From the NCBI RefSeq assembly GCF_003334305.1, contig NZ_QOWS01000005.1: a DNA stretch of 64,000 nt; one strand, written 5' to 3'. A model generated the notes under the pieces. It was not told the origin of the DNA, ran no database searches, and worked only from the letters and a program-made list of their open reading frames with translations. The stretch comes from Escherichia coli. GTDB lineage: Bacteria; Pseudomonadota; Gammaproteobacteria; Enterobacterales; Enterobacteriaceae. The translations under genes and the position numbers were made by a program. Below, piece by piece: positions 58,844 to 59,176 of the stretch (positions are counted from its first letter, which is position 1; every line of letters begins with the position of its first letter).

Positions 58844-58915
58844 TTGTGATTTTGATCTTAGTCTATGCGCTCCATTCACGAAAATTGCGCGGATAATTAT
58901 TTTGTAAAGGCTATT

Positions 58916-58933
58916 ATCCTACACCTGTAAGAA
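58916..58933 (+). promoter_or_regulatory. EvgA-box-like inverted repeat upstream of ydeP
   Basis: ATCCTACA-CC-TGTAAGAA matches the recalled EvgA consensus TTCYTACA-N2-TGTARGAA at 17 of 18 positions; about 245 bp upstream of the ydeP ATG. Confidence 0.55.
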
Positions 58934-59176
58934 AATCCGCGCACAATTGAAGCCAGAGTCTTATTTTTTATATTGAAAAATATGTTAATTTAAACACTAT
59001 GAGAGATGATGCTTAACTTATCGTATTTAATCTATTGTTTAACGATAATAGATTAAAAATAGAAAGAGAGTAGTCCCCTACTCTTATATATCCATGTTGG
59101 CGATAATCCCTTTGTATATACTGTGCATCATCGCTATTACAAATCCTAATAATTCATTTCCACACAGGATAAGTAG

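Follow-up and report, generated by a model that had tools for sequence, protein, structure and literature searches.

The 18-bp palindrome at 58916-58933, upstream of ydeP, is almost certainly the EvgA operator of the ydeP promoter, and the inverted repeat that flanks it is a real and conserved detail of that promoter. The reading that we favour, and hold to be reasonably probable, joins the two: a known EvgA operator accompanied by flanking arms that are kept as promoter elements of duplex DNA, likely as auxiliary contact points, and not as a hairpin. Box and repeat both lie inside the 333-bp spacer between ydeQ and ydeP, within the stretch of 64,000 nucleotides that was analysed as a whole (the window). 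The genes around them, and the elements at issue, are as follows.

57929-58843: ydeQ, fimbrial protein, upstream of ydeP (annotation in matching E. coli records)
59177-61456, plus strand: ydeP coding sequence, 759 aa, with its ATG at 59177 (list of open reading frames)
61704-61901: safA, downstream of ydeP
61976-62737: ydeO, downstream of ydeP
58916-58933, no strand assigned: EvgA box, the high-affinity EvgA operator of the ydeP promoter, ATCCTACA-CC-TGTAAGAA, identified by consensus match, conservation and published papers
58883-58894, no strand assigned: left arm of the repeat, AATTGCGCGGAT, with the perfect core TGCGCGGAT at 58886-58894
58935-58948, no strand assigned: right arm of the repeat, ATCCGCGCACAATT, that is ATCCGCGCA-CA-ATT, beginning 2 nt past the box, with the perfect core ATCCGCGCA at 58935-58943
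58871-58894, no strand assigned: conserved island before the box, TCCATTCACGAAAATTGCGCGGAT, with the left arm inside it and 21 of 24 positions identical in L003, the most divergent allele compared
61575-61592, no strand assigned: second EvgA box, TGCCTACAGCTGTAAGAA, upstream of safA-ydeO, with one mismatch to the consensus

In genome matching the region 58700-59300 agreed at 100% with several E. coli chromosomes and at 99.0% with K-12, and it was found in 5331 of the 5426 complete E. coli genomes. The ydeQ-ydeP spacer occupies a median of one place per genome and at most two (5328 genomes). A repetitive or mobile element, such as a MITE or REP, was ruled out, as the spacer is single copy per genome and the 9-mer of the arms has no further copies in the window. 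Matching E. coli records label the ydeP product 'acid resistance putative oxidoreductase YdeP'. Where K-12 has ydeT, a fimbrial usher gene truncated to a pseudogene, the window carries an intact 883-aa open reading frame (54158-56809), so that the source strain of the window has a complete yde fimbrial operon. Three strains depart from the common arrangement: in GCEC19 (NZ_CP137765.1) an IS1A splits the region matching 58700-59300, which is matched in two pieces, and in 2003-3014 and Z503 (NZ_CP101292.1 and NZ_CP090305.1) the spacer is matched partly, at two separate places. Regulation of ydeP may be altered in all three.

The assignment of the box rests on several concordant observations. Its sequence, ATCCTACACCTGTAAGAA, differs from TTCYTACANNTGTARGAA by a single mismatch, A for T at position 1. 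A search with TTCYTACA-N2-TGTARGAA, which we take to be the EvgA consensus, allowing at most one mismatch, returned exactly two sites in the 64-kb window, the ydeP box and its counterpart upstream of safA, with 0.00 expected from 100 shuffles. The same consensus identified sites upstream of emrK, frc, yfdX (two sites) and yegR at the MG1655 loci, which provides a cross-check on the consensus itself. EvgA boxes of ydeP, safA/b1500-ydeO, emrKY, yfdX, frc and yegR were reportedly described by Masuda and Church in 2003 and by Itou, Eguchi and Utsumi in 2009. On a half-site matrix built from 12 known half-sites, the two halves of the ydeP box score 10.7 and 12.0, inside the range of those 12. The box begins AGCC in K-12 and ATCC, nearer to the consensus, in the window and most other alleles; it is placed 244 nt before the ydeP ATG, its centre being at about -74.5 from the probable transcription start at 58999. 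Direct regulation of ydeP and emrKY by EvgA is stated in the portion of PMC8174306 that cites Kato 2000 and Itou 2009, and the passage of PMC7174508 that cites Burton et al. 2010 places the ydeP promoter under direct EvgA control, with none by GadE, GadX, GadW or RpoS. Inverted repeats at yfdX and yfdW (yfdWUVE) are likewise bound by EvgA (PMC3720670). The identification of an EvgA box, made in the earlier note from the DNA letters, is thus borne out by the fit to the consensus, the position before ydeP, conservation, the twin site at safA and the papers on direct EvgA regulation. As these papers state that EvgA regulates ydeP directly, this part of the finding is already known. Neither the sequence of the ydeP operator nor a mapped 5' end was found in the literature searched, which covered work other than the original EvgA-regulon studies.

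The flanking repeat is the less familiar part, and no description of it was found in the same literature, again a scope outside the original EvgA-regulon studies. Re-reading of the sequence confirmed the spans 58883-58894, 58916-58933 and 58935-58948, and the letters assigned to them, without exception; calling the repeat imperfect, with a 2-nt bulge, was accurate as well. In the repeat search its core, TGCGCGGAT/ATCCGCGCA, is perfect over 9 nt, and the arms stand 40 nt apart; three extra pairs, AAT/ATT, form only if the 2-nt bulge is allowed. Apart from the two arms, the 9-mer ATCCGCGCA has no copy on either strand of the 64-kb window. Inverted repeats that are perfect over 9 bp or more and have gaps of 10-80 nt are common in the window (34, as compared with 15.2 +/- 3.6 in shuffles), and at least one of them appears in 17% of dinucleotide shuffles of the 333-nt spacer. 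A repeat that brackets a fixed 18-nt site was obtained in 1.9% of dinucleotide shuffles. The flanking repeat is therefore modestly unlikely by chance, though this is a post hoc observation. The box does not sit at the middle of the repeat, the centre of which is at 58914.5, as against 58924.5 for the box.

Conservation is a stronger argument than these chance statistics that the arms matter. It was followed in 14 aligned alleles, comprising the window, K-12, ten diverse alleles of E. coli (spacer identity 92.9-98.8%), the allele of 2013C-4282, which is about 88% identical and occurs in 19 genomes, and L003, the divergent Escherichia genome SCPM-O-B-8794, with a spacer about 78% identical. The EvgA box is present in all 14; its half-sites are invariant or nearly so, with variation limited to the 2-nt spacer, position 2 and position 8. 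Each core of the repeat is invariant in 13 of the 14 alleles, the left one reading TACGCGGAT in 2013C-4282 and the right one ATTCGCGCA in L003. Invariant columns make up 40% of the alignment upstream of the box and 75% from the box to the start. Within 58844-58915, the sole 9-nt windows with at least eight of nine invariant columns start at 58886-58889, that is, at the left core. In L003 the sequence around the upstream island has diverged and 12 nt have been inserted between island and box, which brings the gap between the arms from 40 nt in E. coli to 52 nt. The earlier note had named loss of the repeat from orthologous promoters as the observation that would speak against it; what was found is that both arms are kept throughout the 14 Escherichia alleles. 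The L003 genome is without the yde fimbrial genes, and only the last 45 nt of ydeQ are left before its conserved ydeP promoter.

A YdeP search of genome contigs led to only two Escherichia loci, and the next relatives of the protein, in Edwardsiella (84-85% amino-acid identity) and Yersinia rohdei (67%), have unrelated upstream regions, as do the ydeP homologues of Raoultella and Tatumella. No EvgA box with up to four mismatches was detected in the 600 nt upstream of the homologues in Edwardsiella, Yersinia rohdei, Raoultella and Tatumella. At the three Edwardsiella loci (L004, L005 and L007) the identity of YdeP is far above expectation for the taxonomic distance, and the upstream region is GC-rich and wholly different; this suggests that the gene was transferred horizontally without its EvgA-dependent promoter.

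Downstream of the box, the alignment is conserved up to a putative core promoter and start, which can be listed as follows.

58934-58998, plus strand: conserved segment from box to core promoter, comprising the right arm, TGAAG, GTCTTA and the extended -10-like TGTTAATTT
58948-58952, plus strand: TGAAG, inside this segment
58958-58963, plus strand: GTCTTA, inside this segment
58983-58991, plus strand: extended -10-like TGTTAATTT, which fits a start at 58999
58947-58974, plus strand: alternative predicted sigma-70 promoter, TTGAAG-16-TATATT, from a promoter scan, with a start at about 58981
58999, plus strand: probable ydeP transcription start, deduced from probe design in a paper and not from mapped 5' ends

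A genomic SELEX study of RpoD (PMC3946193) gives the alternative promoter, TTGAAG-16-TATATT, for ydeP. Both candidate starts, 58999 and about 58981, lie downstream of the entire inverted repeat. With the former, the ydeP leader would be 178 nt long (58999-59176). This leader is itself highly conserved and predicted to be structured: GAGATGATGC (59003-59012) can pair with GCATCATCGC (59126-59135), both being invariant in all alleles, and hairpins are predicted at 59026-59057 and 59067-59084. No leader pair with substitutions in both partners was reported by RNAalifold; inspection by eye shows an A-U to C-G change, in B2 strains, that would lengthen the 59026-59057 stem. The putative 5' end of the mRNA is the A of ATGAGAGATGATGCTTAA (58999-59016), which would constitute a leaderless 5-codon open reading frame, MRDDA, invariant in 14 of 14 alleles; its conservation may be explained by overlap with the 5' strand of the long-range leader pairing. 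A 28-codon open reading frame in the spacer (59094-59180) that overlaps the ydeP ATG was rejected, its start codon being lost in several alleles. At the other end of the gene, 14 nt past the ydeP stop codon, TTCTTCTGCTGT-catccgc-ACAGCAGAAGAA followed by TTTCTCATT (61470-61508) looks like the intrinsic terminator of ydeP, directly upstream of the safA promoter.

The box-to-core segment has a counterpart at safA. In the 66 positions after the box, 39 are identical in register between the ydeP and safA promoters, a value reached in none of 20000 shuffles. The identities are gathered in blocks: AATCCGCGCA and ACTCCGCTCA at +1 to +10 (8/10), AGTCTTATTTT and AGTCCTATTTC at +24 to +34 (9/11), and TGTTAATTTAA and TGTTATATTAA at +50 to +60 (9/11), the last at equal distance from the box, with a TGAAG block also common to both in register. 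TGTTAWWTT starts 49 nt, and the TAWWTT hexamer 52 nt, after the end of the box in either promoter. The right arm corresponds in register to CTCCGCTCA, directly after the safA box, a correspondence that the earlier note does not mention, and the flank of that box, ACTCCGCTCAGTACTGAAG...AGTCCTATTT...TGTTATATT, is in register with ydeP and kept in L003, where the shared pattern is found in both promoters. On this comparison, the ydeP (58916-59001) and safA (61575-61660) promoters look like paralogues beyond the box. A third related copy of the motif, ATTATC-GCGCAATTT, precedes the safA box at 61514-61528 (p ~0.011 by local alignment); the motif ATTATCGCGCAATTT there stands 46 nt before the box in the orientation of the right flank, opposite to that of the left arm of ydeP, and is poorly kept in L003 (about 10/16).

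The other EvgA promoters share less. The GC-rich flank ATCCGCGCA/TGCGCGGAT is absent from emrK, yegR, frc and yfdX, only safA having a related right flank, and so the flank is not a general requirement of EvgA promoters. A hexamer RTCYTA is placed exactly at +25 after the box in ydeP, safA, emrK and yegR (as GTCTTA, GTCCTA, GTCCTC and ATCCTA) and nowhere else in the 66 nt after these four boxes (58958-58963 in ydeP, 61617-61622 in safA). It is all that emrK and yegR have in common with the ydeP-safA segment. It was considered as a proximal EvgA half-site, the first six bases of which it resembles, and rejected, as it falls below the matrix threshold. The frc and yfdX promoters are without RTCYTA at +25 and share CTCTCTCTGATT instead.

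A mechanism that would accommodate these features starts from phosphorylated EvgA, the NarL/FixJ-type response regulator of the EvgS/EvgA acid-sensing system, which would bind the box and activate a weak ydeP core promoter. The right arm would then be the first 9-14 bp of the box-to-core segment that is common position for position with the safA promoter, and the left arm the core of the upstream island, the one stretch before the box that is strongly conserved; their complementarity would come from a single short motif, ATCCGCGCA, that occurs in either orientation. The arms would most likely offer auxiliary contacts, whether to further EvgA~P protomers, to a co-regulator or, as at BvgA promoters, to the alpha subunit of RNA polymerase. 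The BvgA analogy also suggests that additional EvgA~P protomers or alpha-CTD may touch the segment after the box, right arm included. A scan for EvgA half-sites found no 8-mer in either arm within the top 0.5% of matrix scores, and the arms were accordingly rejected as EvgA half-sites or as a BvgA-like array at steps of about 22 bp. As neither arm scores as an EvgA half-site, the idea of an extra EvgA protomer is an analogy only; weakly specific occupancy by EvgA after the box would still be compatible with a segment that is conserved and common to safA, as at BvgA promoters. Two observations count against a duplex reading of the arms: the stem survives an increase of the loop from 40 to 52 nt, which would be more usual for a hairpin than for a protein operator of fixed geometry, and one outer pair is changed on both sides in L003, from T-A to A-T.

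The earlier note raised the possibility of a long-loop hairpin. It would form either in RNA produced by read-through from the upstream fimbrial operon, where it would serve as a 3'-end stabiliser or terminator, or as a DNA cruciform modulating access to the box. Besides the retention of the stem despite the change in loop length, such a structure could draw on a 9-bp GC-rich stem that forms the backbone of the predicted folds (-19 kcal/mol with z -2.24 for RNA, -11.1 kcal/mol with z -2.22 for DNA) and on the pairing across the alleles, in which 98.8% of cells are paired. Of the 12 stem pairs, 8 never vary in the 14 alleles, one is changed on both sides, one becomes G.U and one A.C, the latter mismatch being that of the 2013C-4282 allele; yet 77 of 500 shuffles reach these values, so the covariation is not significant, and the z-scores are modest. 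The position upstream of both candidate starts puts the repeat outside the ydeP transcript. No terminator-like site was found on the plus strand in 58750-59250, the stem being followed by CAATTGAAGCC with no run of T, and no Rfam match was obtained (E up to 1); an intrinsic terminator or a structured RNA family was therefore rejected. Loops of 40-52 nt are unfavourable for cruciform extrusion. Moreover, both arms are present in L003, where nothing but the last 45 nt of ydeQ is left. Taken together, the location before both starts, the loop of 40-52 nt, the lack of a T-tract and the insignificant covariation disfavour the hairpin; a hairpin role is unlikely, and as a full account of the repeat we regard it as very improbable.

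Two further explanations leave the DNA in duplex form. The complementarity could be coincidental, the right arm being kept as part of the promoter core region and the left arm for an unrelated reason or no specific one, with no pairwise recognition of the two. The ease with which a perfect repeat of at least 9 bp arises in shuffled spacers (17%) and its abundance in the window (34) would be expected in that case, as would the displacement of the repeat centre from that of the box, the unequal arm gap (40 and 52 nt), the 77 shuffles in 500 that match the observed pairing and the A.C mismatch carried by the 19 genomes of the 2013C-4282 allele. On the other side stand the rarity of a bracketing repeat in shuffles (1.9%), the arms as sole copies of their 9-mer in 64 kb, the left core as the best conserved element upstream of the box and the third related copy upstream of the safA box, and we judge coincidence rather unlikely. 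Alternatively, the arms could be oppositely oriented sites of a separate regulator, or of a higher-order EvgA~P complex, that bracket the box and modulate activation, perhaps in a manner common to safA-ydeO; the 'second protein-binding element' of the earlier note may be of this kind. Both arms are conserved as sequence, a single motif occurs in both orientations, and the safA promoter has related sequences, namely CTCCGCTCA immediately behind its box and ATTATCGCGCAATTT 46 nt before it. H-NS binds ydeP and ydeO promoter fragments (PMC2984483), which makes anti-silencing inputs plausible and an anti-silencing role conceivable at ydeP. Against a separate factor, inspection by eye gave no convincing fit of the arms or the island to CRP, a DnaA box (TTATCCGCG, 7/9), marbox, PdhR, IHF, Fur, TyrR or the LysR-type T-N11-A; the upstream copy at safA is the one poorly kept in L003; and the change of the arm gap from 40 to 52 nt speaks against a rigid dimer. 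The palindromic operator of a dimeric regulator was rejected on similar grounds, the half-sites being conserved but the gap widening from 40 nt in E. coli to 52 nt in the L003 allele and the repeat lying off-centre. Either form of this reading, separate regulator or EvgA~P assembly, under which the EvgA to SafA/YdeO acid-resistance cascade would receive at its first step an input not described so far, seems distinctly doubtful, and conserved duplex-DNA elements accompanying the EvgA operator are the reading that we retain.

As the standard reporter for signalling through EvgS/EvgA, and as a gene that contributes to determining acid resistance in exponential phase, ydeP has an operator that is textbook material for this field. 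The small new details are that the box is embedded in a larger conserved promoter module, common to safA in register, that two conserved GC-rich 9-mers of opposite orientation stand on either side of it, and that upstream of the box nothing but the left 9-mer is strongly conserved. Should the arms bind something, reporter constructs cut near the box would miss that input; should they bind nothing, the current picture is unchanged.

The box described here is the ydeP member of the set of EvgA boxes in the E. coli regulon, which place the same 18-bp TTCYTACA-N2-TGTARGAA inverted repeat upstream of an acid-induced EvgA-dependent gene, and as a box it shows no difference from that set. The safA-ydeO promoter (61575-61660) resembles that of ydeP in the succession of box, A(A/C)TCCGC(G/T)CA, TGAAG, AGTC(T/C)TATTT and TGTTA(A/T)(T/A)TT, while its sequence upstream of the box differs and no inverted repeat brackets the box. 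A more distant likeness is offered by the BvgA promoters Pfha and Pptx of Bordetella pertussis, which are governed by a homologous NarL-family regulator, EvgS/EvgA being the E. coli counterpart of BvgS/BvgA. At BvgA promoters a single strong site upstream is followed, at intervals of 22 bp as far as the -35 region, by weaker ones, and alpha-CTD occupies the same DNA segment (PMC7250471). The half-site arrangement is different, as the EvgA box is unlike the inverted heptads of BvgA and the ydeP arms are unlike EvgA half-sites. As in the ydeP promoter, one strong palindromic site is situated far upstream of a weak core promoter; the conserved DNA from that site to the -35 region is filled at BvgA promoters by weakly specific dimers and alpha-CTD, and an EvgA equivalent on the conserved segment of the ydeP promoter is proposed here only by analogy.
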